DNA of 47,181 nt from an uncultured virus (IMG/VR IMGVR_UViG_2061766007_001954) (lineage: Duplodnaviria > Heunggongvirae > Uroviricota > Caudoviricetes), in IMG/VR virus record IMGVR_UViG_2061766007_001954; one strand, given 5' to 3'. Numbering within the stretch: position 1 is the first letter of the stretch; every line of letters starts with the position of its first letter. Positions 8,308-42,147 of this stretch are shown here, one piece after another. The notes under the pieces are model-generated. The model was not told the DNA's origin. It ran no database searches and saw nothing but the letters and a program-made list of their open reading frames with translations. Both the position numbers and the translations under genes were made by a program.

Positions 8308-8365
8308 TATAACCAAGGGCGATATCTTAATCGAGTCGCCCTTAACTTTTACTGTGGAGGAAACC

Positions 8366-8566: not shown

Positions 8567-8577
8567 GAGGAGACACT

Positions 8578-9705: not shown

Positions 9706-9712
9706 TCTGCAG

Positions 9713-21051: not shown

Positions 21052-21476
21052 GTTCACATATCCGGGCAACTGTTATATTAACCGAGGATCTAAGCAGGGA
21101 TGACCTTGTGCAGTTCCTGTCCGAGGCTGTTGGAGAGGAGGCTGCCGCACTGGCTGAAAAGATCTTCAACATTCCTGCCAAAACAGATCTGAAACGCATG
21201 TTCAGTAGGCTTCACAAGCTTTACAACGCATGGCATGAATCCCCGGCGTACATCGAAACTGAGGACGAGTTCATTCCTGACGGTGATGGCGCTGCTGAGT
21301 TCCAAGGCACGATTCAGGCAATCATGCAACATGGTCAGGGCATCACTACGCATGATATGTTCCGTCTGGAATTGTTGTCTGAGTTTCTTTATGAGCTGGT
21401 CGATGGTCCCAGAAGCAAAGCCTTTATGAAGTCTCTCAACAAGTGGGAGAAGGTATTGCTGGAGGAGAACGCATAA
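21048..21476 (+). CDS. hypothetical protein
   Basis: 142-aa coupled ORF. Confidence 0.65.
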   Translation: MSSHIRATVILTEDLSRDDLVQFLSEAVGEEAAALAEKIFNIPAKTDLKRMFSRLHKLYNAWHESPAYIETEDEFIPDGDGAAEFQGTIQAIMQHGQGITTHDMFRLELLSEFLYELVDGPRSKAFMKSLNKWEKVLLEENA

Positions 21477-21820
21477 TGATGATCCCATGCAAACACATCA
21501 CAATATATGTTCCCTACAGCTCATTTGAGTTTGTATCTTCCAGATTCACAGGTAAGCGAGATCAGCTTCATCCTGTCATCATGAGTTACAGCGCTCTGAC
21601 AATCAGTGATAATTCCCCACTGATGCGTAAGCCTATCAAGGAATGCGGATTAAGCCCGCGTTCTGTGCATGCACTCGGTCGCAGAGGCATCGACACCATC
21701 GGAGAGCTGGTGCAGTACAGCCGTCATCAGCTGCTGCAAATCCGTAACCTCGGTGTGAAATGTGCCGATGAAATCGAAGCAATGCTTCAGAAAATCGGTC
21801 TGAAACTGGAGGCATCGTGA
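21476..21820 (+). CDS. RNA polymerase alpha-subunit C-terminal-domain-like protein
   Basis: PIKECGLSPRSVHALGRRGIDTIGELV..QLLQIRNLGVKCADEI matches the RpoA CTD pattern. Confidence 0.88.
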   Translation: MMIPCKHITIYVPYSSFEFVSSRFTGKRDQLHPVIMSYSALTISDNSPLMRKPIKECGLSPRSVHALGRRGIDTIGELVQYSRHQLLQIRNLGVKCADEIEAMLQKIGLKLEAS

Positions 21821-26554: not shown

Positions 26555-26818
26555 ATGTCAGAGAAACAACGCAATCAAATCCTGGAGCAGGCAGAGTCCC
26601 AATTCCAGGATGTTCTGCAGAAAGCCCGCCAAGCATTCGACATGATCGACGATAACGCCGAGACAATGGACGGTGCCAGTGGCATGGGCGATATGACGGC
26701 ATATGAGGCTGTCATGCAGCTCTTCAACGAGATCTATGAAACCGGCTGTACAGCTCTCGGATATCTGTGTGCCAGCGTTCTCCATTACGCCGTGCAGGCG
26801 AGAAAGGATGCAGACTGA
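26555..26818 (+). CDS. small acidic helical protein
   Basis: AAGGA RBS; coupled to the radical SAM gene. Confidence 0.6.
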   Translation: MSEKQRNQILEQAESQFQDVLQKARQAFDMIDDNAETMDGASGMGDMTAYEAVMQLFNEIYETGCTALGYLCASVLHYAVQARKDAD

Positions 26819-27780
26819 TGGATGTCATCAACACCCACACAGGTAAACTGTTCGTCGACCGTGTACGCAAACTGGAATTCGTTTCAGTCGGCGACTACGG
26901 GCAGGAAGAGAACGTGAAGGCTGACTTCTTGGGACTCAAGCAGGAGATCCACGGTGTCAAGCATCATGCTGTCGATCTCACGCAGAAATGGATCACACTC
27001 ATCAGCACCCAGAAAGGCTGCCCGATGAAGTGCGCATTCTGCGACTGCCCCAAAGTCGGATTCCATGGGAACGCATCTGTCGACGATCTCTGCTATGAGG
27101 TCAGCTCTGTCATGAATGCATTCCCCGAGGTCAAGGAGACCAAGCGGTTCAATCTGCACTTTGCCAGAATGGGCGAACCGACTTTCAACCCGGCTGTGCT
27201 TTATTTCACAGAGTACAGGCTTCAGCATCTGATCCGTTCCAGAGTGAATGCGGAAATCATCCATCCTGTTCTGGCGACCATGCTTCCCCAAACCAATCAG
27301 GATCTCGAATACTTCCTTCGGACATGGTGCCACATCAAGAACGACGTCTACGATGGGCATGCTGGCCTGCAAGTCAGCCTTCAGTCCACGGACGAGTTCC
27401 AGCGTGACGCACAGTTCAATGGCATGAGCCTCTGTCTCAGAGATGCCGCCATATTGCTGGACAAGCTGCCGCATCCGAAGACCAGAAAGTACACTTTGAA
27501 CTTTGCTATCACAAAGGATACGATCCTCGATGCAGGCGTACTGGACAGCCTCTTTGACAGCAGGAAGTTCGTTGTCAAGTTGACTCCGGTCCATGAAACC
27601 AAGGCAGCTGTTGCCAACGGCTTCGACATCGGAGACACGTACACAAGCTACGACGCCTACAGGAAGTTCGAGGATCCGCTGCTGGAACGAGGATGGCAGG
27701 TAATTTCTGCTGTTCCTTCCAGAGAAGAAGACAGCGATCGCATCACTTGCGGAAACGCGTTGCTTTCATATGGAGCTTGA
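26818..27780 (+). CDS. RlmN/Cfr-like radical SAM enzyme
   Basis: ISTQKGCPMKCAFC (CxxxCxxC), MGEP, LQVSLQS, C-terminal ITCG. Confidence 0.8.
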   Translation: MDVINTHTGKLFVDRVRKLEFVSVGDYGQEENVKADFLGLKQEIHGVKHHAVDLTQKWITLISTQKGCPMKCAFCDCPKVGFHGNASVDDLCYEVSSVMNAFPEVKETKRFNLHFARMGEPTFNPAVLYFTEYRLQHLIRSRVNAEIIHPVLATMLPQTNQDLEYFLRTWCHIKNDVYDGHAGLQVSLQSTDEFQRDAQFNGMSLCLRDAAILLDKLPHPKTRKYTLNFAITKDTILDAGVLDSLFDSRKFVVKLTPVHETKAAVANGFDIGDTYTSYDAYRKFEDPLLERGWQVISAVPSREEDSDRITCGNALLSYGA

Positions 27781-28111
27781 AACAGCCTTTAAGGTCTGTG
27801 ACGAACTGAACGACGCCAATCCGTACAAGTGGAACAACTCCCGAACCGCACCGCGATACAGGCCTATTCACCAGCAACCAATGGGTGCGCCTGTAATCGC
27901 GATGCGGAATATCGTAGGCACCGGCGCGTTCCTCTATACGGTTGATACGATCCATAGCAGGCTCCACCATCCGGCGCATTCGATAAGGATAAGCGAAGAT
28001 GTCTGGGATGACTGGGGGATCAGGAAGGTCTGGCTGGACGGCTGGGCGCCGATCGTATTAGTCAAGCTCGGTCCGCTACTGAAGCTGCGGCATCAAGGTT
28101 CTGTTTTCTGA
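27770..28111 (+). CDS. PY-family paralogue 1 (divergent)
   Basis: MELETAF...NPY. Confidence 0.5.
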   Translation: MELETAFKVCDELNDANPYKWNNSRTAPRYRPIHQQPMGAPVIAMRNIVGTGAFLYTVDTIHSRLHHPAHSIRISEDVWDDWGIRKVWLDGWAPIVLVKLGPLLKLRHQGSVF

Positions 28112-28202
28112 TAGCTCTCGCACAGAGGGTTATCACCGATAGACGGAGCCTTGATGCCATAACCTGGAAATACTTTTATGAAATACACAAAGAACTGGCT
28201 AT

Positions 28203-28580
28203 ATGAACTTTAGAGATGCGCTGGACGAATTGTTTCGCGCCAGATGCGGAAGAATCATCACATGTCCATACAAGGAGGACGAGCCGCGAACAAACAGGGC
28301 TACCTTTACAATGGAGCCTATGGCATTCACCGATAGGAAATTCAGAGACTATGTGATCATCTTCCTGGACCATGAGGCCAAACCCAGGTTTTGGCGTTGG
28401 AATAAGGCTGAAGAAAAGGCTCCTTGTTTAATCTCCGCAACAGATTCATATAAACTGGCAGCTGGCAAACCCTGGAATACTGGCAGCTGGATAATACCTG
28501 ATCCGCCACGCCAAATTGGTGACTGGATCGAAGAGGAACGAAATATATGCGACTGGACGACGCAAAACGAGAACTCCTGA
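28203..28580 (+). CDS. PY-family paralogue 2
   Basis: MNFRDAL..TCPY..WIIPDPPRQIGDW. Confidence 0.7.
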   Translation: MNFRDALDELFRARCGRIITCPYKEDEPRTNRATFTMEPMAFTDRKFRDYVIIFLDHEAKPRFWRWNKAEEKAPCLISATDSYKLAAGKPWNTGSWIIPDPPRQIGDWIEEERNICDWTTQNENS

Positions 28581-28891
28581 AGTTGGTTCATAAGGACGTC
28601 TGTCCTTTCAAGGAGCCAGAAGCTGGACAGCGCAGATGGTTTAAGCACGGCGGGGATGTAGCTTGTTTCAAGTACATCCATAACGGCATCGCTCATGGCG
28701 TTCTGTTCCTGAGAAGTAATTTGCGGTTTGCTTATTGGGACTGGCCGCCGGGAGGAGAGCCTGTGAGAACTGATGCCATGCCAGACTGGATCAAGAATGG
28801 CGATGAGTGGGGTTTCAGATTATGGCATCTCACTCTACCGCCAGAGTCAGTAAACGAATGGTACAGGAAGTTTGGCTACTATGACATTTGA
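28547..28891 (+). CDS. PY-family paralogue 3
   Basis: MRLDDAK..VCPF..WHLTLPPESVNEW. Confidence 0.7.
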   Translation: MRLDDAKRELLKLVHKDVCPFKEPEAGQRRWFKHGGDVACFKYIHNGIAHGVLFLRSNLRFAYWDWPPGGEPVRTDAMPDWIKNGDEWGFRLWHLTLPPESVNEWYRKFGYYDI

Positions 28892-29246
28892 ACAAGCAAA
28901 ACAATGGCTGCTCGCTACATTGGATACCAAAAGCTTAACTTGTCCATACAAGGTGCCAGGAATCGATAAACGTGCGTTTGTTGACTACAAACGTGGCCTC
29001 TTTGTTCCCTGCGCCAAGATAACACGCCCGATCGGAGACAGAAGGCACGGAGGCGGCATGTTGTTAGACAAGCATGGCGAAGTTGTGCTGTGGTGGTTCG
29101 ATCAGGAGAATTCCATAATGCTGCATGAGCCTAAGCTCTATTGGAGTGAAGAAGCATGGTACAACAATTGGCATATGGATGCATGGAATCTCACTCTGAG
29201 TCCCTGGATCATAACAAACTGGGTCAAGATGGAGGGTTTGACATGA
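28881..29246 (+). CDS. PY-family paralogue 4
   Basis: MTFEQAK..TCPY..WNLTLSPWIITNW. Confidence 0.75.
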   Translation: MTFEQAKQWLLATLDTKSLTCPYKVPGIDKRAFVDYKRGLFVPCAKITRPIGDRRHGGGMLLDKHGEVVLWWFDQENSIMLHEPKLYWSEEAWYNNWHMDAWNLTLSPWIITNWVKMEGLT

Positions 29247-29602
29247 TCTATCAGGAAGCGTGCTACTGGCTAACAGGACAGCCGTTAGGCGCAGGTTGCC
29301 CATATAAGCAAGAGGGTGCCGCCCTCGGCTCTGCTGAGGAGTGTTTCTCCATATCTGAGAATACTGTGCCCTGTTGCAAATTGATTGCTGGCCGCTATTA
29401 CGGAGGGCTTTTCCTTCGAGCGGACAACACAATCGCTGTGTGGGAGTTTAGATCCGACGAACGAGATCGTTTACTGGATGCTGTACCAGAGGACTGGTTT
29501 AAGGCTAGCCTGCGTAACCACTGGATACACACCGTGTGGTACTTAGGCAAGCCTCCATGGGTTGTAAGCAACTGGTTAAAAGAAAATGGAAGATTAATAT
29601 GA
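29243..29602 (+). CDS. PY-family paralogue 5
   Basis: MIYQEAC..GCPY..WYLGKPPWVVSNW. Confidence 0.75.
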   Translation: MIYQEACYWLTGQPLGAGCPYKQEGAALGSAEECFSISENTVPCCKLIAGRYYGGLFLRADNTIAVWEFRSDERDRLLDAVPEDWFKASLRNHWIHTVWYLGKPPWVVSNWLKENGRLI

Positions 29603-29976
29603 CTTTCTATGAAGCATGCCGTTGGCTGAACGGTGAAGATGTCTTTACTGGTTGCTGCCCGTATGTGGATGCTCCGGGTACCCGCTCAAAGCCAGCAGTT
29701 GAACTATATAACAACGGAAGAGTGATCCCTTGTTGCAAATTAGTTGCCGATGACTTCCTCGGAGCCATTTTCTTGAAGCGGGATGGATCTATCGCCATCT
29801 GGCAGTTTGCAACGGATGACGGCGAATCAGAATCAGACAGACTAGTTGATGCGGTACCATCTTCCTGGAATACACAGAAGAGGCGTAACTGCTGGAAACA
29901 GAACGTCTGGTATCTTGACAGAGGTCCTTGGGTTATAACTGATTGGCTCAAAGACAATGCGAGACTGGAACCATGA
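29599..29976 (+). CDS. PY-family paralogue 6
   Basis: MTFYEAC..CCPY..WYLDRGPWVITDW. Confidence 0.75.
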   Translation: MTFYEACRWLNGEDVFTGCCPYVDAPGTRSKPAVELYNNGRVIPCCKLVADDFLGAIFLKRDGSIAIWQFATDDGESESDRLVDAVPSSWNTQKRRNCWKQNVWYLDRGPWVITDWLKDNARLEP

Positions 29977-30561
29977 ACGACACTGTGGACTACGAGGCTG
30001 GAATCATGAACTATGAAGAAGCCAAACAGGCGCTTCTGGCGCTGATCGATAGCAAGGCAGACTGCCCCTATTCCCAACCATCTTGGAATGAAGCGGCATC
30101 CGGTCACGACTACAGACGAGGTGACCGGGTTCCATGTGTATTCTTCAGTCCGTGGGATTTGCATGGAGGCGGTGTCATGTTCATTAATCAGCAAGGTGAG
30201 ACTGTCCTCTGGTATTTCGGCGACGAGGATCATGAACACCATATTCTGGAGAGTGTTCCTCAGGAGTGGCTCGACTATACNNNNNNNNNNGCACGACTAC
30301 AGACGTGGTGACCGGGTTCCATGTGTATTCTTCAGTCCGTGGGATCTGCATGGAGGCGGTGTCATGTTCATCAATCAGCAAGGTGATACTGTCCTCTGGT
30401 ATTTCGGAGACGAGGAGCATGAACACCATATTCTGGAGAGTGTTCCTCAGGAGTGGCTCGACTATACAGGCGACAACTGCGAGTGGAGACTTGAAAGCTG
30501 GAACCTGCACGTCGGACCAGACACGATCACTGCCTGGGTTAAGGAGAACGGACTGTTATGA
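29973..30561 (+). CDS. PY-family paralogue 7 (middle duplicated around an assembly gap)
   Basis: MNYEEAK..DCPY..WNLHVGPDTITAW; about 30105-30280 is repeated after the gap with SNPs. Confidence 0.65.
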
Positions 30562-30950
30562 CATACGACGAGGCAAGAGCTGCTCTAATAGCTTTGGCTG
30601 TGGCTGATGCCAAATGTCCGTATGCGCCTGCACAATGGTCGAGTAAAGCAAAAGAACTTGAGTGGTATCCTGGACATACTATCCCTTGCATCTGGCACAC
30701 CCACAGAGATGCAACACAGACAGCAACTATCGCGGTTATGTTTCTGTCGAAGCATGCTGAAACGGTGCTCTGGTATATTGGTGAACGTGTCGATAACGAC
30801 GATAATCACTATATCATGGAGCAGCCTCCAGCAGAATGGCTTCGGTATGATAGATCACCGGAAAGTCAGGGCTGGAGGTTTGGTCGCTGGAACATAAAGG
30901 TCGGGCCGTGGGATATCACCAACTGGGTTAAAGAGGAGTGTCTGTTATGA
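30558..30950 (+). CDS. PY-family paralogue 8
   Basis: MTYDEAR..KCPY..WNIKVGPWDITNW. Confidence 0.75.
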   Translation: MTYDEARAALIALAVADAKCPYAPAQWSSKAKELEWYPGHTIPCIWHTHRDATQTATIAVMFLSKHAETVLWYIGERVDNDDNHYIMEQPPAEWLRYDRSPESQGWRFGRWNIKVGPWDITNWVKEECLL

Positions 30951-31276
30951 CACTGGCACAAATCAAAGGATGGGTCAAGGCAGGCCCCAACAAGATCATA
31001 ATCTGTCCATACAGGGATCATCCTCCCGGATTGCCTGGCACGACGATACGCATAGGAAGGTTGGAGCTTTATCCAGGCATCATCTTTCTGCTGTTCCGCG
31101 TAAGACACACAGACGACTTCATGCTTTTCAAGTATGAAGTACGCTGGCCGCCTGTACCGGCAGAAGCTGATGATCCGTACTATCAACTAGCCATTGATTC
31201 CAGGAAATGGGGCATGGACAGATGGTATGCCCCTGATTCTGATGTCACAGAAAGGTACAACCTGTATGACATATGA
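30947..31276 (+). CDS. PY-family paralogue 9
   Basis: MTLAQIK..ICPY. Confidence 0.65.
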   Translation: MTLAQIKGWVKAGPNKIIICPYRDHPPGLPGTTIRIGRLELYPGIIFLLFRVRHTDDFMLFKYEVRWPPVPAEADDPYYQLAIDSRKWGMDRWYAPDSDVTERYNLYDI

Positions 31277-31610
31277 TGAAGCTAGACACTGGCTCCTGTC
31301 GTCCCGTAGGAAAGCTCTTTGCCCCTATAAGAGGGAAAGCACGGTGACGCCAAAGGCACCGAACCAGGTGTTGTGTGTAAAGCTGGAGGGAGGACGCTTT
31401 TATAACGGCATCATGCTGCTTAAGAGAGACGGTACCATACAGCTTTGGGATTGGCCTGATGAACGGGATCCCTACAGAGTCGACGAGCCTCTTGATTACT
31501 GGTTCAAAGATTTTGGCAAGATCAACGGATGGGTGGAAGATCTGTGGTGGTTGGATAATTCACCGTTAAATGTAGGGAGTTGGTACAAAGAGGAGCATGG
31601 ATTGCGATGA
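31266..31610 (+). CDS. PY-family paralogue 10
   Basis: MTYDEAR..LCPY..WWLDNSPLNVGSW. Confidence 0.75.
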   Translation: MTYDEARHWLLSSRRKALCPYKRESTVTPKAPNQVLCVKLEGGRFYNGIMLLKRDGTIQLWDWPDERDPYRVDEPLDYWFKDFGKINGWVEDLWWLDNSPLNVGSWYKEEHGLR

Positions 31611-31924
31611 CCGATTTCAATGATGCGTCGGCTTGGCTTGTATCGCAGGCATACGGCACATTGTCTCCTTATAAACCGGATCCTGATCATTATGCTGGCG
31701 ATGAGATTCCCTGTTGCAAGAACTATATGAAAGCTCCTCGCTACATTATGTTCTTCCATCCTAAGGAGCAACGAATCGTATTCTATGCCTTTGAAGGTCA
31801 GTACGGATGTTTTCCGCCAACACGTATCAGCGGCTTAGAAGAAATACCGAAAGACCGTATGAACACTTGGACCAAGGACATATGGTTCGTCGACACTTTC
31901 GCAAAACAGGAGAAGCTCATATGA
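31607..31924 (+). CDS. PY-family paralogue 11
   Basis: MTDFNDAS..LSPY..IPCC. Confidence 0.7.
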   Translation: MTDFNDASAWLVSQAYGTLSPYKPDPDHYAGDEIPCCKNYMKAPRYIMFFHPKEQRIVFYAFEGQYGCFPPTRISGLEEIPKDRMNTWTKDIWFVDTFAKQEKLI

Positions 31925-32334
31925 GCAAAGACCCTTATCAGGAGGCTCTGGCGCAGCTGCTCGGTTACACTGTCGAGTCTCCTTATGACAGCCGCAACTG
32001 GAGGTTTGCTTTGAGATCAGATCCCGCGCAGGAAGATATTCCTGTCATCAGGGTCTATGATAGTAATGACACCAATTCCAAGCGACTTGGCGTTATTGTC
32101 CTCGATCGCAACAGACAGCCGGTTGCTTTTTCGTGGCCCCGTGCAGAACATCTGCATTCACCAGCCGTTTTGTTAGATGAAGTTCCTGAAGAGTGGAAGC
32201 ATGGCGACTATATGGTTACCTTGTGGCACCTTAAGGGAAAACCACATGAAGTAGGAGACTGGTATGCCTACAATGGCTACAGATTCCCAGACGGATCTGT
32301 CCCGTCAACAGCAGATTCGCCAGCTGGCGAATAA
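31921..32334 (+). CDS. PY-family paralogue 12
   Basis: PYQEAL..ESPY..WHLKGKPHEVGDW. Confidence 0.7.
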   Translation: MSKDPYQEALAQLLGYTVESPYDSRNWRFALRSDPAQEDIPVIRVYDSNDTNSKRLGVIVLDRNRQPVAFSWPRAEHLHSPAVLLDEVPEEWKHGDYMVTLWHLKGKPHEVGDWYAYNGYRFPDGSVPSTADSPAGE

Positions 32335-32752
32335 AGAATACAGCTATTCGGATGCCATTCGGGCATTACGCCAGCTTGCTGTTCCGTCTCCCTATGGCGG
32401 CAGCTCTCTGGAAGACGTGTTCGCTACCAGATTCGGAATCAATCAGGTTGCTGATCTGCAACGCTGGCTGGATAGCGGCTATATTCCGATCATGGTCTCC
32501 GCCACCGCTCGCAAGTGGCGCGATGCAGGATATCAGAACGTCGAAGACGTGCTGATCGTGATGGACAAGGATATGAAACCATCGTATTGGCACAGAGGCA
32601 TCAGCGGCGGAGCCAAGGTGCTTAAGACCATCGAAGATCAGCGACAGCTGTGGGAAGCAGCAAAATATCACTGGTTCGTATGGTCTACTACTGCACCGCC
32701 TATGCAAGTAGGCGAGTGGTGGAGGAAGCATGGCTATAAGTACAGAGCATGA
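32264..32752 (+). CDS. PY-family paralogue 13
   Basis: YSYSDAI..PSPY..PPMQVGEWW; start uncertain. Confidence 0.65.
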   Translation: MPTMATDSQTDLSRQQQIRQLANKEYSYSDAIRALRQLAVPSPYGGSSLEDVFATRFGINQVADLQRWLDSGYIPIMVSATARKWRDAGYQNVEDVLIVMDKDMKPSYWHRGISGGAKVLKTIEDQRQLWEAAKYHWFVWSTTAPPMQVGEWWRKHGYKYRA

Positions 32753-33146
32753 TTTCTACATACCAAATGCGATAGATGTCCTGAGAAACCTGGCTACTTC
32801 GAATCCGTATAAGGAACGCTGGTCTGATGTTATGAACGCAGAGCTCAGATGGATGACACGTCCAAGGGACAACGCACCTACACCTATCCCTGTACCGGGA
32901 ATTATAAGTGGCTGGTTCGATTTCGATCTAAGGCGTTCTCAGAGCATCATCTTTCTGAACAGGGACATGCAACCTCAGCCTTTTCGCAGGAACTACATCA
33001 GTATCTCGAAGCTCGATGCTATCCCTAAGAACTGGTACAGGAAGGTGTGGACGCTGACATTGTACAACTTTGCCGAGCCGGATGAAAGAAGTGGCGGCTT
33101 GATTCTCAGAACATGGTATCAGCAGGAAGGCTTCCATTATGATTGA
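32730..33146 (+). CDS. PY-family paralogue 14
   Basis: YIPNAIDVL..SNPY..IFLNRD. Confidence 0.65.
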   Translation: MAISTEHDFYIPNAIDVLRNLATSNPYKERWSDVMNAELRWMTRPRDNAPTPIPVPGIISGWFDFDLRRSQSIIFLNRDMQPQPFRRNYISISKLDAIPKNWYRKVWTLTLYNFAEPDERSGGLILRTWYQQEGFHYD

Positions 33147-33570
33147 TGGCAGGACAGGTAATCTGCATGAAGGCATTCAGATGTTGATAAACCGTTCTTA
33201 TCAGTCGCCATATAGACCACTATGGTCGGAAGGTTATGCGATGGAGCCCGGTGATATTCTGGTTCCGTCATTGCATGTCAACAACCGCCATTCCAGACAG
33301 GGCTGTATCCTGCTGGACCGTGAACGCAAACCAAAAGCGTTCAAATGGACATCCGAGGACTGGGACGAAGAGCGTGGGGAATATGCCACGCCGCTCGATG
33401 CAATTCCAAGCTGGTGGTACGGTCTCTGCAGCTGTGATAGATGCTATTGGTATGTCAACGCCGAGCCATTTGAAGTAGGCAACTGGTGGAAGCAATACGG
33501 TTTCGTCTTTGCCGAAGATGATGTCCCGCCGTTAAGGCGTTCCTACTATAGAGGGCACGACTATGAGTGA
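33139..33570 (+). CDS. PY-family paralogue 15
   Basis: NLHEGI..QSPY..WYVNAEPFEVGNWW. Confidence 0.7.
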   Translation: MIDGRTGNLHEGIQMLINRSYQSPYRPLWSEGYAMEPGDILVPSLHVNNRHSRQGCILLDRERKPKAFKWTSEDWDEERGEYATPLDAIPSWWYGLCSCDRCYWYVNAEPFEVGNWWKQYGFVFAEDDVPPLRRSYYRGHDYE

Positions 33571-33922
33571 CGATGTTTGTGTCAAATCCATGGAACAGTT
33601 CACAAGCCTTACTTTCAGTGACGCCTGCAGAGAGATAGCCAACAATCCCTATAGCCCGATAGGCGGCCAGGTGCTTTACAACCATAGCCGCAAATCCGAG
33701 CTGCCGGTGCAATACTACGTTGTCTTCGCCAAAGGCGAGTTCCGTATCTATCGTCGTGCCAACTTCTCCAACGACAATATAAGACGTCTAACAGTGGAAG
33801 AAGCCACCGCCCTTGATCCGGAACTCTTCACGACAGATACCAGATGGATGTATGCGCCAGAATACGGATTGCCTATCACCCTGTATGAGGACTTGGTCAT
33901 TGAAGGAGTAATAAACCCATGA
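33563..33922 (+). CDS. PY-family paralogue 16
   Basis: LTFSDAC..NNPY..QYYVVF. Confidence 0.65.
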   Translation: MSDDVCVKSMEQFTSLTFSDACREIANNPYSPIGGQVLYNHSRKSELPVQYYVVFAKGEFRIYRRANFSNDNIRRLTVEEATALDPELFTTDTRWMYAPEYGLPITLYEDLVIEGVINP

Positions 33923-34251
33923 CAGCCGGTTTCTATTCTTTTCAGGAAGGCATCAATTCGATGCGAGATTCCCCGTATCATGGAAACCATAACAAGATCC
34001 TGTACATTTGCACCACCACTGAAACCAGGCCTCTGAGAACGCTTGAGTTCTATGCGCTGTATAAGGACAGCAATCTTTTGATATTCAGACGTTATGATTA
34101 CGCAGCACGTTTGGATCCTGTCCTTAAAAAGACACATCCGGTTTTTACCAGTCCGTCTGCCAGCTGGTCTTTCATAACAGCCGGAGGCCTGTCAAGACCG
34201 GCATACATGTTCTTAAGGTCGGAAGGATTTCTGAAAGATGTCGAGCCATGA
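33919..34251 (+). CDS. PY-family paralogue 17
   Basis: YSFQEGI..DSPY..EFYALY. Confidence 0.65.
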   Translation: MTAGFYSFQEGINSMRDSPYHGNHNKILYICTTTETRPLRTLEFYALYKDSNLLIFRRYDYAARLDPVLKKTHPVFTSPSASWSFITAGGLSRPAYMFLRSEGFLKDVEP

Positions 34252-34559
34252 GACATGAACTTACTTTCCAGCTCGGTATCATGCATATGACTTACTGCCC
34301 CTATAGCGACTGTCCTGATCCTGCATTGTACAACTTCTATACGGAGCCAGGCAGCTGCTTCAGAAGGCATAATTACTATGCTGTTGTCATAGGCGGAAAG
34401 CCCCATGTCTATAGAACGCCCGAATGGACCAATGAAATCTTTCTTGTGGAGGACTTCACAGAGGAGCCTTTCATCAAGGACGGCCATTGGTATATCATAC
34501 GGCAAACTAATATCCCATGGGTAGTCTATCATCAGATGTGGCTGGACGGTGCGGTATGA
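34248..34559 (+). CDS. PY-family paralogue 18
   Basis: LTFQLGI..YCPY..NYYAVV. Confidence 0.65.
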   Translation: MRHELTFQLGIMHMTYCPYSDCPDPALYNFYTEPGSCFRRHNYYAVVIGGKPHVYRTPEWTNEIFLVEDFTEEPFIKDGHWYIIRQTNIPWVVYHQMWLDGAV

Positions 34560-34868
34560 GAATCACACTCAATCTGCAGGACGGCCTGAAAGCGCTTACA
34601 TCCTGTCCGTACAATGTTGCCGATACTAAAGTGCTATGGTGCTCTTATTGGGGACCTACATATAGTACCGACTTCTATATTGTTGTCAACAAAGGGATTC
34701 CTGTCGTATATGCACATACTCCAATGCGCAATCTGATAGAAAGGCCCGCCTCGCTCTATAAGGAGGAGCTGAAGGATTTAAGGACAGCATGGTGCTGGGC
34801 ATTCACTGGTACGCAGGCGTTGCCAGGTGTCGTCTATACAGTTATGCAACATGACGGAGTGTTCGGAT
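34556..34868 (+). CDS. PY-family paralogue 19 (stop codon recovered from the overlap with the inverted contig)
   Basis: LNLQDGL..SCPY..DFYIVV; the reverse complement of 36671-36773 supplies ...GVFG-TGA. Confidence 0.6.
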
Positions 34869-34944
34869 NNNNNNNNNNNNNATCGCCATGTCCCCCTTTA
34901 TAAAGGGGGACTGGCTCAATACTAATTTGTAATCGGTGAACACT

Positions 34945-34984
34945 AAAAGAAAGACCAGGACAATCCTATTGGGAAAGCCTGGTC
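34945..34984 (-). terminator. intrinsic terminator closing the paralogue array (on the inverted contig)
   Basis: Minus strand GACCAGG...CCTGGTC followed by TTTCTTTT. Confidence 0.65.
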
Positions 34985-35015
34985 GGGTTAATTGTTACAC
35001 GTGCGCGTCCATATA

Positions 35016-35309
35016 TTAGTATGGAAAACCGATGGGCCAATCTGTATCTGCCCACTTGATCAAATTCCATGAATTATAATCATCCGCAAAAATGTGCGGA
35101 TACCTGGAAAGAATCTCTACTGGTGGTACAACTTCTGGCTCCAATGTAGATGACACTTCCACAAACCACAGCTTATCCTTGCGATAAGAAGCCATAATCA
35201 GCCTTGGCAGGTAATATCCAGGAATATGTACTGTCGTATGGGCGAAATAGTCTTCTCCATATGGGCACAATGTTGGTTCAATGGCCGATAAGGCCTCTGA
35301 GTACGTCAT
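35016..35309 (-). CDS. PY-family paralogue 24
   Basis: MTYSEAL..LCPY. Confidence 0.65.
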   Translation of the reverse strand: MTYSEALSAIEPTLCPYGEDYFAHTTVHIPGYYLPRLIMASYRKDKLWFVEVSSTLEPEVVPPVEILSRYPHIFADDYNSWNLIKWADTDWPIGFPY

Positions 35310-35628
35310 AATCTGGCTGCCATCCTCCAAATCTGGCTCCAACGATCCCCCATACCCCAAGACGCCACTCGTTGAAGTGTTCCTGGAACATATAAGGATG
35401 TCGCTTCCTTGCTGTCCGCTTTGTAAGATAGATGTCATGTCTGCCTCTCCAGAACTCTGCGAACCATAATCTGCCTTCATAATAAAAGCCATACAATTCG
35501 CCGAGTTTTGTAGGATCAACTTCCCACCCATTCTTATATAGATAGGACTTTATGCAATCTGCCCTGCCGTACTCCCTGTAAGGAGTGTGTATCGGCATAA
35601 TCCATAACAGTGCGTTCTGGAAGTTCAT
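35278..35628 (-). CDS. PY-family paralogue 23
   Basis: MNFQNAL..HTPY. Confidence 0.65.
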   Translation of the reverse strand: MNFQNALLWIMPIHTPYREYGRADCIKSYLYKNGWEVDPTKLGELYGFYYEGRLWFAEFWRGRHDIYLTKRTARKRHPYMFQEHFNEWRLGVWGIVGARFGGWQPDYDVLRGLIGH

Positions 35629-35957
35629 AGAAGAGCCCAGATCCTCGCTGGAACAAAGCAACAATCTCTCCAATTGCCTGGAGTCCAGCAGTTAGATATG
35701 TGAGCATCACCCATGTCAGAATAGAACAGCTGTGGCTTCTCCTGCTTCAGAGATCCTAATGATGGGAAATACGTATGATCTTCATCCAGGCTGTACATCA
35801 CACAGCAAATAGTATTTCCTTGCAAATATGATACATAGTATAAGACAGCATGACCTCCTCTGGATCTGTCTGTAAGCTCCAGATGATTGTAGTCTCTACG
35901 ATCCTGATATGGACACAGCTGCGGCTTCAATAATTCAAAACCTTCATCGAATCTCAT
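35625..35957 (-). CDS. PY-family paralogue 22
   Basis: MRFDEGF..LCPY..VLYYVS..ICC. Confidence 0.7.
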   Translation of the reverse strand: MRFDEGFELLKPQLCPYQDRRDYNHLELTDRSRGGHAVLYYVSYLQGNTICCVMYSLDEDHTYFPSLGSLKQEKPQLFYSDMGDAHISNCWTPGNWRDCCFVPARIWALL

Positions 35958-36304
35958 AACAGCGACAGTATCCTGTGAGGAACAAATATGCAGTCAGACC
36001 AGCAACCTGCATGCCACTTACCAAGCATTCCGGGAGTGTCCCTATGCGATTGGAAAGCACGAGGACATTCTATTTGAAACTCTACAATTGTATTGTAATA
36101 AGTGGTTGCAGACTCTCTAAGTGCTTCCATCTTGCAGCATATGACGGTACCTTTAATATTGGACACATAATACAAGATCTGTTGCCCTGTTGATATGTTC
36201 TCCCATGTGTTGACAAAATCATAACCTCTTTTTCGTTGGTTTGTTTTGTACGGACAGAGAACATCCTCATGAGAAAGCAGTTTGTAGGCATCCTGAAAAT
36301 TCAC
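35954..36304 (-). CDS. PY-family paralogue 21
   Basis: (GTG)NFQDAY..LCPY..ILYYVS..ICC; close to paralogue 22. Confidence 0.7.
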   Translation of the reverse strand: MNFQDAYKLLSHEDVLCPYKTNQRKRGYDFVNTWENISTGQQILYYVSNIKGTVICCKMEALRESATTYYNTIVEFQIECPRAFQSHRDTPGMLGKWHAGCWSDCIFVPHRILSLL

Positions 36305-36624
36305 GAATTTCTCCTTGGGCGGTTTTCCCACCACGATAAAGCGCTCTTAGGCCAGAGATACCAGCTTTCTGAGCTTAGAATTTGAGGCTCTTTAATAGAA
36401 AGAGAATATCTATCCTCAAGATAGATACGATTATCGTCCATCTCCTCTCGTCTGTAGATTATAAGGACATTCCCCTCATACGCGGCATACCACTGGACTA
36501 GACCATTTTCCGGATGCATGCCGGCATGATACAGCACACAGTCAGGATGTCCTCCATATGGCGAATCGCGTATGAGTTGTATGCCTCTTTGAAACGTATA
36601 GCTGTTTACCAGATCCACGTCCAT
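36301..36624 (-). CDS. PY-family paralogue 20
   Basis: YTFQRGI..DSPY..QWYAAY; similar to paralogue 17. Confidence 0.65.
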   Translation of the reverse strand: MDVDLVNSYTFQRGIQLIRDSPYGGHPDCVLYHAGMHPENGLVQWYAAYEGNVLIIYRREEMDDNRIYLEDRYSLSIKEPQILSSESWYLWPKSALSWWENRPRRNS

Positions 36625-36823
36625 TCCGGCAGTAAGTCCTATAGCCTTGCAATATGATGTGCCATGAATGTCATCCGAACACTCCGTCATGTTGCATAAC
36701 TGTATAGACGACACCTGGCAACACCTGCGTACCAGTGAATGCCCAGCACCATGCTGTCCTTAAATCCTTCAGCNNNNNNNNNNAGATAAGTCTCAACACC
36801 TCTAAATAATAGGAGTTATCTAT

Positions 36824-39800
36824 ATGAGTATTGACCTTACAGGGAATACCAACTTTGCCGCTCTGAAGAATCTGCAGGACGAAGTGATCGTGCCTCGTAC
36901 CAGTCTTGCTGCGGTAGATATGGTGACAGCCAATGGTATCGAACGCAATGGCAACGTTCTTAAAGTGAAAGAAGCGGCAGCTGCTGATATGCTGTCAGGA
37001 TCCACAACAGGTGCAGTCGTTACAGCTGACAATCTTAAGAAGGCTCTGGCAATGGGCCAGGCAACGCTGCTTGATATGCATACCCACGAATTGACTGCCA
37101 GTGGTGCTGCTGTTGAATGGAGCTTTAATGGCAATCAGCTGGATGTGTCGGGTACTGCCACAGCTGCTACAGCCGGTATCGCTTTCCTTGGACCTATTGA
37201 AGGCCCTGCTACCAAGAATGGCAAATATCTGGTGACGTTCGATGTGTTTCTGCCATCCACAAGCACAGCCACTAACTTCGTTGTCGGCGGTCCTACTTTC
37301 GTCACTGTGGGCACTTATCCTACTACTGTGACGACCAAGGGTGCATGGGCACGCTGCGCAGGCGTCATCAATACAACCAGTACGCTCTATACTGGCGATC
37401 TGAATCTCAGACTTACTACCAGTGTCAATAACAGCGTTGCTTTCAGTGTCGCCAATTTCCGGTTGCTGGATGTTACCGGTTTCAGTGATGCGGATATTCT
37501 GTATCTTGCGGGTACTGGTACCAAGAACACGACTGTCAGCGGTCAGACTGTGATAGGCGAAGGTGATTCCCAGTATCTCTATAAGCCTGGTTATGGTATT
37601 AAGATCAAAGGCGATACCATTGAAATCGATACTAGTGTTCTTGCAGTAGATGCTGATGATTTTATTTATGGTATCGATATGGACACCCAGTGGGCAGATG
37701 CTACGAGTGCTCGTATTGGAGGCGGACTCAGACGTGTTGTCATGGATCGCAGTAATGGCATTATCAGTGAAGTTGCTGATTTCGACTATATGCCTGCACA
37801 TGATGCATGGCGCCGTTGCGTGATGGACAATCTGGAAACCAAACATGTCAATTACTATCTGGATAAGAACGACAGCAATCTGAAAGAAGACCACACTCCC
37901 GCAGTGCTTACAGGTGCAGATGGTGATGTGATGGTTGAGTGGCCTATCACCTATGTGCGTGTTGATCAGTATACAGACAGCAACGGGCATGCACATCAGC
38001 GTTGGCTCGTAAGCCTTACGGAATTCGATGGCAGTCGTCCGCATGATTGTTTCTATGTGAGCGGTGATGGCAAGACAGTAGGTGTCCAGTATGTCGGCGC
38101 TTTCCGTATGGGTGGTTGCAATACCAATATGCAGCCTGTTGGAACTGATGAGAACAGTTGGACCGTTGTGACTACTGGGAGTGGTGTTGCGCAAGCATAC
38201 TATGGCAGATCAATCGCCGGTGTTAAGCCGATCGCGAATATGACGATTCAGCAGTTCCGTACCGTTGCGGATAATAACGGTGGTCATATCATCAGCTCTG
38301 CACATGCGCAGTTCCTGGGCCTTATGATGCTGATCGAATATGGTACTGATATTCAGTATGCCTTTAATAATGGCTTTGCTTCCAGCGTAGGTCTTGGTTG
38401 GGGACAATACAGGCTTTGCGGACGTACTGCAAGCTTCGGCAATAACAGCACTCCTGCAACAGCGGTTCATGCCAATAGCATCTATGGTGCAGATACCGAT
38501 GATGGTGCGGGCTTCTACAGACCTACCTTTGCAACCGCCAGTTCCTATAGCAACAGCACTTATGCCCTCAGACGGGCTGACAAGGATGTCAATGTCGGTC
38601 TGCTCTCTTATGGGGGTGTTGACTATAAGCGTGATGCATCTCAGGATGTCGGCTATCAGGTTATTATCGGCGGTGTTACTTATGATCGCGGCACTCCTTT
38701 CGAGAATGAGAGCGAAGGCATCATGTATTATAAGTGGACCAATGGCACCACCAATTATTACACGACTGATCACAGCCCGACTACCAGCAGCACGCTTTAT
38801 AGCGATATTTTCGGTGATGTCAGCAGTGCGACGATCGAGGGTGATACCGATCTTCATGCATGGTACAATGCATCCGCAACACCTGCTGTTATCTATACAA
38901 CAGTGGCAGAACCTAATGTCGGTACTGTGACTGTTGTGGATTATGACGATACCACGCTTGGTACTGGCACCAAGGGACTGGATGCTTATGCATGGTGTCC
39001 TGATAAGGCTACTAACAGTGTGCTTTACAGTGCAGTCGGGCATCCGGCAGTTGGTGCTTCGCTTTATAGCGATAGCACGCTTACCACTGCAGCTGTTACG
39101 ATTACCAGCATCGCCGGTTCCACTGATCCGCGTGTTGCTATTATCCAGTGCAGCTATCGTGGCATCGAAGATCCGTTTGGTTCGCAGTGGTGCTTTGAAG
39201 ATGGCGCATGGGGAGTGTTCTCCATGGTCTATAATGGAAAGACGTATTACAGACTTGGCGGGACCGGAAGCTCCATTACAGTCAGTAGCACCACTTATTA
39301 CAAGTGGGCAACTGATATTGATGGACAGCTTGGTGTCAGCGGTGCGGATGTCGTGTATCTGAATACGTTGACTCCTGCGGCCGGCGGCAATGTATATAAT
39401 GCCAGCGGTACGGTTATTGGCACTATCACCAGTGTGACTGCTCCAAGCTGCGGTGCTTTCTGGATGACAACGTCGACCGATGCTTATGCCGTGGTTACGG
39501 CTATCGCAGTTAGCAGCGTGTTCTATTGGCGCGATAGTGCAGATGATGCCGTTGTCAACAATACTCGTTACTATGGATGGAAGAGCGACGCAGGCAATAT
39601 TGTATATAGCACGACTCGTCAGATCGCAGCCAATGGTGCAGTTTATAGCATCAGCGGTACGACCGTAACGAGCGCTGGTACAGCAAGTGCTGTCTACAAC
39701 GCGCATCAGACCTATCTTAAGAACTACAGTTTGATCACCGGCAGTGTTTCGACTGTCAATGGCTATGTCCGCAAGATGGAACCGCATACGTTTGTTCCTC

Positions 39801-40009
39801 TGGTTACGGGTAGCCCTGCGTCTGACCGTCAGTGGTGGTGCGATTACTTCTACAATGTCAAGGCAGAAACTGCAAGTTATCCTAATCCCCGTGTTGTCGT
39901 TCGTGGTGGCTCCCTGTACTTCGGGGGCTTTGTTGGTCCTTTCTGCTTGGACCTGACTCCCGGTTTCTCCCTTGCTCACTGGTCCTTTGGCTCTCGCCTG
40001 GCGGTCTGA
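36824..40009 (+). CDS. DGR target protein: tail-fibre/adhesin with C-terminal C-type-lectin-fold variable region
   Basis: GADGDVMVEWP, YVGAF, LIEYG, YRGIEDPFGSQW, CDYFY, RGGS...FGSRL motifs of phage DGR targets; 3' end is the VR. Confidence 0.9.
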   Translation: MSIDLTGNTNFAALKNLQDEVIVPRTSLAAVDMVTANGIERNGNVLKVKEAAAADMLSGSTTGAVVTADNLKKALAMGQATLLDMHTHELTASGAAVEWSFNGNQLDVSGTATAATAGIAFLGPIEGPATKNGKYLVTFDVFLPSTSTATNFVVGGPTFVTVGTYPTTVTTKGAWARCAGVINTTSTLYTGDLNLRLTTSVNNSVAFSVANFRLLDVTGFSDADILYLAGTGTKNTTVSGQTVIGEGDSQYLYKPGYGIKIKGDTIEIDTSVLAVDADDFIYGIDMDTQWADATSARIGGGLRRVVMDRSNGIISEVADFDYMPAHDAWRRCVMDNLETKHVNYYLDKNDSNLKEDHTPAVLTGADGDVMVEWPITYVRVDQYTDSNGHAHQRWLVSLTEFDGSRPHDCFYVSGDGKTVGVQYVGAFRMGGCNTNMQPVGTDENSWTVVTTGSGVAQAYYGRSIAGVKPIANMTIQQFRTVADNNGGHIISSAHAQFLGLMMLIEYGTDIQYAFNNGFASSVGLGWGQYRLCGRTASFGNNSTPATAVHANSIYGADTDDGAGFYRPTFATASSYSNSTYALRRADKDVNVGLLSYGGVDYKRDASQDVGYQVIIGGVTYDRGTPFENESEGIMYYKWTNGTTNYYTTDHSPTTSSTLYSDIFGDVSSATIEGDTDLHAWYNASATPAVIYTTVAEPNVGTVTVVDYDDTTLGTGTKGLDAYAWCPDKATNSVLYSAVGHPAVGASLYSDSTLTTAAVTITSIAGSTDPRVAIIQCSYRGIEDPFGSQWCFEDGAWGVFSMVYNGKTYYRLGGTGSSITVSSTTYYKWATDIDGQLGVSGADVVYLNTLTPAAGGNVYNASGTVIGTITSVTAPSCGAFWMTTSTDAYAVVTAIAVSSVFYWRDSADDAVVNNTRYYGWKSDAGNIVYSTTRQIAANGAVYSISGTTVTSAGTASAVYNAHQTYLKNYSLITGSVSTVNGYVRKMEPHTFVPLVTGSPASDRQWWCDYFYNVKAETASYPNPRVVVRGGSLYFGGFVGPFCLDLTPGFSLAHWSFGSRLAV
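39892..40000 (+). repeat. DGR variable repeat (VR)
   Basis: Ungapped 109-nt match to 40332-40440; 20 mismatches, all opposite TR adenines. Confidence 0.97.
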
Positions 40010-40331: not shown

Positions 40332-40440
40332 TGTTGTCATTCGTGGTGGCAACCTGAACAACGGGGGCAATGATGGTCCTTTCTACTTGAACCTGAATAA
40401 CGGTTTCTCCAATGCTAACTGGAACTATGGCTCTCGCCTG
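40332..40440 (+). ncRNA. DGR template repeat (TR)
   Basis: AAC/AAT-rich invariant copy of the VR, upstream of the RT. Confidence 0.97.
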
Positions 40441-40594: not shown

Positions 40595-42147
40595 ATGAAA
40601 TCCTGGAAGCACTTATTCGAACGCGTTACAACAAAGGAAAATTTCTTAAAGGCTTTTCAGAAGGCTAAGCTTGGCAAACAGGATCATCCTTCTTTTGTTA
40701 AGTTTGCTTCTGATCTTGATGATAATCTGGAAGCGCTTAGACAGGCTGTCATTAATGGCACATGGCGCCCATGGGGCTATAATACATTTCTTAAATATGA
40801 TGGCAATAAGATCCGTCAGATCGACTATGATCCAGAGTTCTCGGATAACTTGGTACAACATGCAGTAGCCATCATTCTGTTACCATTATTCAGTAAAACT
40901 GCAATAAGAGACACTTATTCAGGTATAAAGGGACGTGGTTTACATGACGGTGTACAACGAGTCTATGCTGCTATTCAGTCATATGGCACCAATGATCCCT
41001 GGGTTGTTAAGATTGATATTCACCATTTCTATCAGAATGTGGATATAGCCAGGCTTAAGCAGATGCTTGCTAAACGTATCAGGGATAAACAATTCTTAAG
41101 TCTTCTTTTTATTATCCTTGACANNNNNNNNNNNNNNNNNNNNNNNNNNNNNNNNNNNNNNNNNNNNNNNTTTCCGCTACTGTGATGACATTGTAATTCT
41201 AGAACAGACGAAGCAAGCAGCCCTCGACGACCTATTCATCATAACACANNNNNNNNNNTGATATAGCCAGACTTAAGCAGATGCTTGCTAGACGTATCAG
41301 GGATAAACAATTCTTAAGTCTTCTTTTTATTATCCTTGACAGCCACCCGGATGGACTTCCCATTGGTAATTATCTGAGTCAGCACTTTGCTAACTTCTTC
41401 CTAAATGACATGGATCACTATATGAAGGAAGCAATCCATTGCAAGCATTACTTCCGCTATTGCGATGACATCGTAATCCTAGAACAGACGAAGCAAGCAG
41501 CCCTCGACGACCTATTCATCATAACACAAAAGTTGCAGGAGCTCGGTTTGTCCCTGAAAGACAATAAGCAGGTATTCCCAATTACCAGACCAGGACATTT
41601 GGATTTCCTTGGTTACGTCTTCTTCCGAAACACCATCAGAATACGTAGATCCATAGAGCGCGATTTTAGACGTGCTGCTCTTTCTTATATAAAGACGCCT
41701 AATACGCATGACGCACAATCTTTAATAAGTTACTATGGATGGCTAAAATGGACGACATCCGGCTATAAATTATGGAATACCTTACTGCCTGGAGTTGATG
41801 ACGTGAAATATCACCTGCCCAAGGATACCGATGCTATGCAAAACGGGACCGATCTTACTGATCTGGTTTACGATGATGGTACCATCCTGAAGCATATGGT
41901 GGATGTATTCAATAGAGATATCATTGTTGTCGACTATAGCACATTTATAAATGACAGGCAAGAGCGTGTACTTAAGATTGTGTTCTTCTTTCCCGATGAC
42001 GAACAACCCTATCGTGTATTTACACAGTCGAAAGTATTGATAACAGTTATTCCTGATATAGCAAAGACCAAACCATTTGAACCATTCAAGACCAGGATCA
42101 TTGAACGTAACAAGTGTTACACATTAGCACATACGGAGACGATATGA
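40595..42147 (+). CDS. DGR reverse transcriptase (about 444 aa once gap duplications are collapsed) with C-terminal extension
   Basis: KIRQI, DNLVQHA, IKGRG, KIDIHHFY, GLPIGNYLSQHFAN, YFRYCDD, DFLGY; both halves share KQMLA..IILD across the gaps. Confidence 0.92.

Follow-up and report, generated by a model that had tools for sequence, protein, structure and literature searches.

What purpose could be served by a long series of diverged copies of one small gene, set end to end in a phage genome, and do such copies form one family at all? The question is raised by a 47,181-nt stretch of DNA (the window) from an uncultured virus of the Caudoviricetes, IMG/VR record IMGVR_UViG_2061766007_001954, in which positions 27770 to 36714 are occupied by a run of short open reading frames (ORFs) next to a diversity-generating retroelement (DGR). 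A first-pass annotation, made from the sequence alone, had read the run as about 24 tandem Trp-rich paralogues that arose by serial local duplication, and as a gene accordion of small binders. We found that the array is a single operon of 23 (perhaps 24) old paralogues, which form an undescribed family of small cytoplasmic proteins, and that its carrier is a roughly 158-kb-class phage of ruminant guts.

The tandem small ORFs, each with an N-terminal helix followed by a [C/S/N/T]PY motif, were present as that annotation had described. Its copy number held for 23 firm paralogues; the remaining one, g01, is doubtful, with a p-value of 0.022 against the A3 profile compared with 7.5e-7 for g10. With starts set at the common N-terminal helix, the proteins are 97 to 159 aa long. 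All-versus-all BLASTP divided them into three groups: subfamily A (14 genes, g02 to g07 and g09 to g16, with a core of g03 to g11 and an SPY sub-clade of g13 to g16), subfamily B (5 genes, g17 to g20 and g25), and subfamily C (4 genes, g21 to g24). Among 407 six-frame window ORFs of at least 50 aa, the family profiles gave no match outside positions 28182 to 36759. Tryptophan accounts for 4.54% of residues in the array versus 1.83% in 23 other window ORFs. As had been claimed, none of the array proteins contains a transmembrane-like segment (maximum Kyte-Doolittle score of 1.38 over 19-residue windows).

The gene order of the record required correction, since the window is a scaffold with eleven runs of N (at 3023, 3211, 24575, 30281, 34869, 36774, 41124, 41249, 43248, 43497, and 43637). 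Positions 30105 to 30280 and 30292 to 30467, 176 nt that are 96.6% identical, flank the N gap at 30281 to 30290. Contigs from two sequencing runs, X3 and X11, go straight through this region with a joint from 30221 to 30409, omitting 187 nt. ORFs 7 and 8, previously taken for a duplicate pair, are therefore a single gene, g07, of which 176 nt were doubled across the gap by scaffolding; its intact orthologue, P0023 (133 aa), is 86% identical. A second error concerns the 3' part of the array. Positions 34768 to 34868 are the reverse complement of 36673 to 36773 at 100 of 101 positions, an inverted repeat that results from two overlapping contig ends. In X1 and X11, contigs link 34767 to 36773 on opposite strands, a contig of X3 links 34943 to 36784, also on opposite strands, and further joints were observed at 34882/34950 in contigs of independent runs. 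In a Joint Genome Institute (JGI) contig, L004, g22, g21, a long palindrome, and the DGR target gene follow each other on one strand throughout. The minus-strand block from 34882 to 36773 (g21 to g25) is inverted in the scaffold, and the true order is g01 to g20, g25, g24, g23, g22, g21, palindrome, and DGR target gene, all co-directional. Once the inversion is corrected, subfamilies B and C are each contiguous. Similar errors may affect the eight N-run joins beyond the three that were checked, for instance where the reverse transcriptase (RT) gene is split.

The palindrome has a long perfect stem (...GTCCCCCTTTATAAAGGGGGAC... inside a larger inverted repeat) and lies at 690 to 775 in L004. 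It is preceded by a second GC-rich hairpin, so that both stand between the final array gene and the DGR target gene, and BLAST of the palindrome region returned matches on both strands. The palindrome is a probable terminator and accounts for the break between contigs.

In the corrected order, the array is a translationally coupled, co-directional operon. At twelve of the 23 junctions, adjacent genes overlap by 4 nt (ATGA or GTGA), and most of the others overlap by 8 to 62 nt; only three short gaps occur, between g01 and g02 (91 nt), g06 and g07 (29 nt), and g20 and g25 (about 46 nt). Many starts at the gene junctions (window positions 28560 to 36320) are preceded at a distance of 12 to 17 nt by a Shine-Dalgarno (SD)-like AAGGAG or GAGGAG, which falls within the codons that specify the W-x-K-E-E-G conserved at the C-terminus of the preceding gene product. 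Conservation of W-x-K-E-E-G may therefore partly serve translational coupling. The K-E-E-G codons are in this sense under a dual constraint, coding for one protein and signaling the start of the next. The GTG start assigned to g24 is backed by P0007 and P0008 (116 aa), which begin with VNFQ or MNFQ. A scan of the window for terminators remained at background level (12 found versus 8.4 expected).

How far the family extends was assessed with a HMMER search of 1.84e9 proteins, using the subfamily A profile and a cutoff of E ≤ 1e-3. It yielded 51 family representatives, 23 of them at E ≤ 1e-10. Twelve of the 51 are 86 to 100% identical to a window gene and one is 64% identical, whereas 38 show 41% identity or less, which indicates that the family extends beyond the phage that carries the array. 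In the 51-sequence alignment, the N-terminal helix is marked by M1 (37 of 51 sequences), T2 (36), E5 (33), A6 (31), and L10 (48). It is followed by P20 (51) and Y/F21 (49), then by P36 (43), C37 (28), F51 (38), and L52 (38), and towards the C-terminus by W94 (51), P100 (49 of 50), and W106 (50 of 51). The resulting consensus reads [S/T/C]-P-[Y/F], P-C-x-K, F-L-D-K, and W...W.....P.....W. Word-seeded searches returned near-orthologues only (6 for subfamily A and 9 for B and C together) and no longer, fused forms, which is weak evidence that such forms are absent.

The absence of a known domain, also proposed earlier, was borne out by the searches. Neither window proteins nor family members had a credible match in Pfam, PHROGs, or NCBIfam; the single weak PHROG match was phrog_14892 (E 0.0023, 1 of 22 proteins), and no structural PHROG was matched. 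A profile search of PDB sequences at E ≤ 10 was without credible match, and the ESM Atlas gave no usable match for g11 or g19. Scans of IMG/VR found no locus beyond the window's own record with g05 and nothing with P0038 or P0075, and the one match obtained with P0024, in a primase, was spurious. A single-protein scan of 185,579 GTDB species genomes with P0073 produced four matches of 8 to 13 residues, which were likewise rejected as spurious. Megablast of the array and tblastn of P0024 detected no match in GenBank phages. Literature searches on rumen, jumbo, and DGR phages and on tandem small anti-defense paralogues yielded no description of the family, although its motifs are not text-searchable. 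As far as the profile libraries, PDB, and this literature go, the family is undescribed.

The stretch from 30600 to 34800 was found in runs of 10 studies labeled as bovine, sheep, or goat gut, and its presence was verified in four of these runs (X1, X3, X6, and X11). A relative of g14, P0006, sits on a 158,425-nt contig. Members from outside the window are found on short ENA or Logan contigs. Seven family clusters have a longest contig of the same length, 4,432 nt, and groups of three clusters share values of 3,978, 3,811, 1,875, and 1,551 nt; these equal values suggest, indirectly, that other phages carry arrays of the family too. One outside subfamily (P0040 and P0073 to P0085; 109 aa) is far commoner than the rest, with 14 members at 90% identity, and occurs on contigs of up to 191,055 nt from three sources; it was not located in IMG/VR or in GTDB genomes.

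To what extent the three subfamilies share one scaffold was judged from predicted structures and from profile comparisons. An AlphaFold2 (AF2) model of g11 from subfamily A, built on the 51 sequences, reached a mean predicted local distance difference test (pLDDT) score of 92.8 and a predicted template modeling (pTM) score of 0.83. Its elements are a helix at residues 3 to 18, the xPY loop, strands at 34 to 42, 45 to 52, 58 to 62, and 70 to 72, short helices at 78 to 86, a strand at 89 to 95, and a helix at 101 to 111. The model of g19 from subfamily B, which was based on 12 sequences from B and C only, scored a pLDDT of 86.3 and a pTM of 0.80. Despite their separate alignments, the two models have the same element order, H-E-E-E-e-H-E-H, which predicts a shared fold composed of α1, a four-stranded antiparallel sheet, a short helix, β5, and a C-terminal helix. 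The N-terminal helix and the xP[YF] turn, which is invariant, are common to A, B, and C. Between the two models, the lists of the top 50 weak PDB neighbors overlap by at least 19 entries, which include the SH2 domains of Spt6 and STAP-1, the Tas1 immunity protein, and SIRV ORF131. Membership in the SH2 domain family (Spt6, STAP-1, and RasGAP compared) was rejected by the criterion of a Pfam SH2 match together with a phosphotyrosine pocket. Both models show a common kind of arrangement, a helix-sheet-helix sandwich, for which no relative could be demonstrated. The proposal of one shared scaffold, matching no well-characterized domain, thus agrees with the structure comparison.

Profile-profile alignment of A3 with B and C combined gave a probability of 83% and an E value of 8.5e-6 over the N-terminal 60 columns, and pairwise hhalign comparisons of subgroups gave E values of 5e-4 to 3e-5. 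Taken with the models, this is moderate, not strong, evidence that subfamilies A, B, and C are one superfamily. The conserved residues L10, P20, Y/F21, P36, F51, L52, W61, W89, W94, P100, and W106 probably form the core, as they are hydrophobic, or Pro or Trp, and are placed in helices and strands. Mean column entropy was 0.98 at xPY, 2.25 to 2.85 in helices and strands, and 3.2 to 3.6 in loops. Substitutions and indels gather after xPY, in the β1-β2 hairpin, and between β3 and β5; inserted residues amount to 171 in the loop after xPY, 113 in the β1-β2 hairpin, and 98 in the β3-β4 loop.

Regarding the history of the array, similarity between paralogues declines with distance along it (Spearman coefficient of −0.32; none of 2,000 order shuffles was as low). 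In the corrected order, the bit scores of adjacent pairs sum to 675, compared with a shuffled mean of 381, and this statistic is no better than in the scaffold order (689 bits). Neighbors appear as sisters in the tree, namely g05 with g06 (42% identity, clade support of 95), g04 with g07 and g09, and g13 to g16 (the SPY sub-clade; support of 97), while g10 has a long branch of 3.13. Window genes are also interleaved with outside members, with 13 changes for 13 window rows. The graded similarity, the sister neighbors, and the interleaving fit an array that grew by local duplications in an ancestor and was then retained, and the suggestion of serial local duplication is in line with this. The accordion, in the sense of a recent amplification, did not hold up. 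Gene accordions of the poxvirus type consist of recent, near-identical tandem copies of an accessory gene whose number varies. The array resembles them in being a tandem series of copies of a viral accessory gene, but identities to g05 range from 18 to 42%, and no DNA repeat longer than 38 nt exists among the paralogues save the two assembly artifacts, the residual matches corresponding to the CPYK and W-V-K-E motifs. Because the copies are this old, we regard the expansion as ancient rather than as a recent accordion.

Across strains, genes g01 to g20 are collinear in X3, an independent bovine run in which they lie on one 7,023-nt contig at 95 to 99% identity, and in X11, and differences occur at the 3' end. 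The X11 contig omits the body of g21 (35018 joined to 35278, without 35019 to 35277), and X3 has about 565 extra nt, not aligned to the window, between the palindrome and the DGR target gene. In X11, the g12 region from 31638 to 31898 keeps its length but has diverged by more than 10%, between flanks of 95 to 99% identity. Exchange of alleles or cassettes at individual paralogues may underlie the differences at g12, at g21, and in X3. Small compensated indels were seen among strains in g18, g22, and g25. An extra A after 31264 in three of four runs (X3, X6, and X11) alters the last few codons of g10; the window version is common only to run X1, which may be its source.

Counted over 40 of the 539 listed strain differences, synonymous changes outnumbered nonsynonymous ones by 20 to 10 in array genes and by 7 to 3 in the upstream radical S-adenosylmethionine (SAM) gene. 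Relative to L004, g22 has six synonymous and two nonsynonymous changes and g21 two and one (8 to 3 in total), and the variable repeat (VR) of the DGR target gene is saturated with replacements. The copies thus appear, on small samples, to be kept by purifying selection and to lack an arms-race signature. The features of the locus are compiled in Table 1.

Table 1. Genes and other features of the array and its neighbors (window coordinates and strands as in the scaffold; A3, B, and C denote family profiles)
Feature	Position	Strand	Description
Radical-SAM protein (phrog_24834)	26767..27780	+	Upstream neighbor
g01	27770..28111	+	Doubtful, very divergent member; helix and NPY; overlaps radical-SAM stop by 11 nt
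g02	28203..28580	+	Subfamily A; A3 E 1.3e-25; orthologue P0003 95% identical
g03	28547..28891	+	Subfamily A, CPF variant; A3 E 8.2e-28; P0019 93% identical
g04	28881..29246	+	Subfamily A; A3 E 5.9e-30; P0017 97.5% identical
g05	29243..29602	+	Subfamily A; ATGA overlap with g04; A3 E 2.9e-31
g06	29599..29976	+	Subfamily A; A3 E 1.4e-30; P0016 identical
g07	30006..30561	+	Subfamily A; one gene, read as two ORFs around N gap 30281-30290
g09	30558..30950	+	Subfamily A; A3 E 7.7e-28; P0020 91% identical
g10	30947..31276	+	Degenerate subfamily A member; A3 E 2.6e-4 among 407 ORFs
g11	31266..31610	+	Subfamily A; AF2-modeled; A3 E 6.2e-31
g12	31607..31924	+	Subfamily A, shortened C-terminus; A3 E 5.5e-18
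g13	31921..32334	+	Subfamily A, SPY sub-clade g13-g16, C-terminal tail; A3 E 5e-27
g14	32273..32752	+	Subfamily A, long insert after SPY; A3 E 5.2e-19; P0005 98% identical
g15	32730..33146	+	Subfamily A; A3 E 8.7e-13; P0030 64% identical
g16	33139..33570	+	Subfamily A, C-terminal tail; A3 E 1.4e-24; P0004 94% identical
g17	33563..33922	+	Subfamily B; B E 3.1e-42; BLASTP links to g19, g20, g25
g18	33919..34251	+	Subfamily B; B E 2.6e-39
g19	34248..34559	+	Subfamily B; AF2-modeled from B+C-only alignment
g20	34556..34868	+	Subfamily B; last 101 nt repeated reverse-complemented at 36673-36773; orthologue P0013 of 104 aa
Palindrome	34882..34950		Long, terminator-like; closes array; in true order just before DGR target gene
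Scaffold block	34882..36773		Bounded by N gaps 34869-34881 and 36774-36783; orientation opposite to that in independent assemblies
g21	35016..35309	-	Subfamily C; C E 2.3e-38; final array gene in true order
g22	35278..35628	-	Subfamily C; C E 1.5e-40
g23	35625..35957	-	Subfamily C; C E 2.3e-47; BLASTP with g24 about 1e-19
g24	35954..36304	-	Subfamily C; GTG start in GTGA overlap with g25 stop; AAGGAG upstream of GTG
g25	36301..36624	-	Subfamily B; B E 2.2e-39; after g20 in true order
DGR target, tail protein (phrog_5302)	36824..40009	+	Downstream neighbor; VR at 39892-40000

As to function, the interpretation that we tentatively prefer, at a little less than an even chance, is that the paralogues constitute a germline set of binding modules that act inside the cell, are built on one scaffold, and have their targets among host or defense proteins. 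It is suggested by the combination of a conserved core with variable, indel-rich loops. Since no catalytic motif is conserved, stoichiometric binding or inhibition would be the most likely mode of action. Each paralogue would be specialized through its loops for a different host or defense protein, or for a different variant of one, and their joint expression, probably early, would serve to seize control of the host or to disarm it.

Several observations weigh against this interpretation or against parts of the account on which it is built. The family has no homology to any characterized inhibitor, and the isoelectric points of the array proteins span 4.6 to 9.3, so that a uniform DNA-mimic character is lacking. 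Subfamilies B and C are linked to A by weak profile scores and predicted folds, and the substitution counts come from the small fraction of listed differences given above. A related phage record, L001 (138.6 kb, 83% complete), holds no copy of the family, which is therefore dispensable in that lineage. Sigma-70 promoters in the window did not exceed background (13 found versus 15.3 expected), Bacteroidota-type and phage-sigma promoters not having been searched. Contigs from the X6 RNA library span several stretches of the array, with depths similar to those in the flanking regions, but such libraries can contain DNA. This cover was taken as a hint at most, and neither it nor the 30- to 50-kb contigs of X11 were counted as proof of transcription; the stretches without X6 cover (27351 to 27701 and 29106 to 30158) carry no weight.

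In its most specific form, the binder interpretation would make the array a hard-wired repertoire, in which 23 binders share a new α/β scaffold that may derive distantly from a Tad2/SH2-like architecture, and each neutralizes a different defense protein or immune signal of the rumen host population. Stated in such detail, we consider it unlikely.

Tad2 was the sole functional lead and was tested for that reason. According to the alternative that follows from it, the array would encode remote Tad2/DUF2829-like proteins whose oligomers sequester immune signaling nucleotides, such as glycocyclic ADP-ribose (gcADPR) and cyclic oligonucleotides, with the paralogues covering different signals. Tad2-like models from BFVD scored probabilities of 0.35 to 0.63 against the family models, and the array proteins are rich in aromatic residues. 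Tad2 is described as consisting of an N-terminal helix and an antiparallel β1-β5 sheet with helices in loops (10.1101/2023.05.01.538930), an element order similar to that of the array family. In a comparison with SPO1 Tad2 alone, hhalign aligned the N-terminal helix and central hairpin of A3 at a probability of 38% (E 3.4e-4). However, when a Tad2-like profile of 15 proteins from GenBank phages was used instead, the probability dropped to 12.6% (E 0.0023), and A4, B, and C aligned over the first helix only. PF11195, the Tad2-like model, which detects SPO1 Tad2 at 84.8 bits against a cutoff of 25 bits, matched none of 22 window proteins and none of the 51 family members at E ≤ 1. The signatures R-x-G-W-N-G-K (following helix 1) and [AP]-S-Q-x-D-x-x-A-x-D-W (C-terminal), as read from the 15 homologues, are missing from the family consensus. 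In view of the missing PF11195 match and signatures, membership in Tad2-like/DUF2829 (PF11195, which includes AcrIIA7) was rejected. The array family is further set apart from Tad2 by an additional β5 and C-terminal helix that carry the W94/P100/W106 motif, and by its 23 tandem copies instead of one. Known sponges are usually single-copy, and no precedent is known for 23 of them expressed together. The folds may share a very remote origin, yet we consider nucleotide sequestration itself decidedly unlikely.

Proximity to the DGR suggests another role for the array, as accessory factors of the diversified tail protein, that is, chaperones, adaptors, or decoys matched to its receptor-binding variants. 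In L004 as in the corrected order, about 130 nt separate the end of the array from the DGR target gene. Furthermore, in the gut Caudoviricetes record BK063676.1 (L019) a Tad2-like gene (phrog_1048; 27574 to 28041) immediately precedes a tail protein gene of phrog_5302, the PHROG to which the target gene after the array also belongs, a curious parallel. Such a role is nevertheless improbable, given that the terminator-like palindrome splits the array from the target gene, which has a strong SD of its own, that no array protein matches a structural PHROG, and that the linkage with a DGR was seen for the lineage of the window only. Moreover, the template repeat (TR) of the DGR matches no window site other than the VR at 39892 to 40000, and none in the array. 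Thus, the array does lie beside the DGR, as first annotated, but offers no second target, and its place there is a matter of position.

The DGR itself comprises the VR, a TR at 40332 to 40440, and an RT gene at 40595 to 42147 that is cut by N runs. TR and VR share 81.7% identity, and each of their 20 mismatches coincides with an adenine of the TR, which is canonical for a DGR; replacements in the target protein between the window and L004 gather at residues 1013 to 1055.

Equally improbable is a role in immunity or superinfection exclusion, with the proteins as tandem antidotes against polymorphic toxins or competing phages. Tandem series of diverged small α+β proteins, which the array resembles, are typical of the SUKH/Imm immunity genes of polymorphic toxin systems (PMC3482391 and PMC3113570). 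The array differs from them in standing in a phage and not in a cellular context. No toxin gene was recognized beside it, no SUKH or Imm family of Pfam was matched (the best was Imm39, with an E value of 0.22 for 1 of 51 members), and the single-protein scan of species genomes brought no genuine match.

The radical-SAM gene whose stop is overlapped by g01 could indicate that the array encodes substrates or partners of this enzyme, either precursors resembling those of ribosomally synthesized and posttranslationally modified peptides (RiPPs) or proteins modified at [C/S/T]-P-[Y/F] or at Trp. Multicopy precursor arrays are known for RiPPs, and the Cys/Ser-Pro-Tyr and Trp positions are conserved in the family. 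A RiPP precursor array was rejected, as the proteins lack a hypervariable core peptide, are predicted to be compact globular domains, and are conserved up to the C-terminus, where the helix is among the best-conserved parts. In addition, homologues of the enzyme with 62% (L001) and 48% identity occur on records (L001 and L002) without any family member, so the radical-SAM gene is not tied to the family. We regard this relationship as very improbable. That the genes are decaying or selfish duplicates without function has a next to negligible chance, for although g10 and g01 are degenerate and some loss or replacement occurs in strains at the 3' end, the frames are intact, the starts are coupled, synonymous changes are in excess, orthologues are retained across strains and studies, and the folds are predicted with confidence.

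Farther upstream, the window encodes a dUTPase, a sigma factor, RNA ligases, a Pnkp-like repair enzyme, nucleotidyltransferases, and a patatin-like lipase. The presence of RNA repair, sigma factor, and nucleotide metabolism genes places the array in an accessory, nonstructural region. The RNA repair set (6294 to 13285 and 19987 to 21051) contains a LigD-phosphoesterase/ligase-like protein, an Rnl2-like RNA ligase, an RlaP-type nucleotidyltransferase, and a 753-aa kinase-phosphatase-Rnl1 fusion (phrog_8238, E 2.4e-160), the nearest GenBank matches of which are at most 35% identical and belong to phages of Bacillus, Staphylococcus, and Lactobacillus (Firmicutes) and of Fusobacterium. The phage sigma-70-family factor is encoded at 5329 to 6213 on the minus strand, and on the plus strand lie genes for the patatin-like phospholipase (14574 to 15473) and for a small protein that contains the C-terminal domain of RNA polymerase alpha (21443 to 21820).

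Large lineage-specific expansions of a small domain in a big phage are a known phenomenon, while the family itself is, as far as these checks go, undescribed. Bacillus phage G, for example, has about 35 zinc-ribbon copies, a lineage-specific small-protein expansion (PMC7824862). Both are large phages with dozens of paralogues of one small domain; unlike the copies of phage G, those of the array have an undescribed α/β fold and are gathered in one contiguous, coupled operon.

For anyone annotating this record, it matters that the locus is misrepresented there by one false duplication and one inverted block. The family is well defined (23 copies, clear motifs, and confident models), recurs in bovine, sheep, and goat gut, and is directly testable. 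Phages tend to keep their tools for host manipulation and counter-defense in large tandem expansions of small accessory proteins, most families of which are unnamed. If the hard-wired repertoire were confirmed, the array would represent a germline library of counter-defense specificities that complements the somatic, DGR-driven diversification of the receptor-binding protein. It would then be a rich new source of anti-defense proteins and a natural case of scaffold-based binder diversification in a virus.

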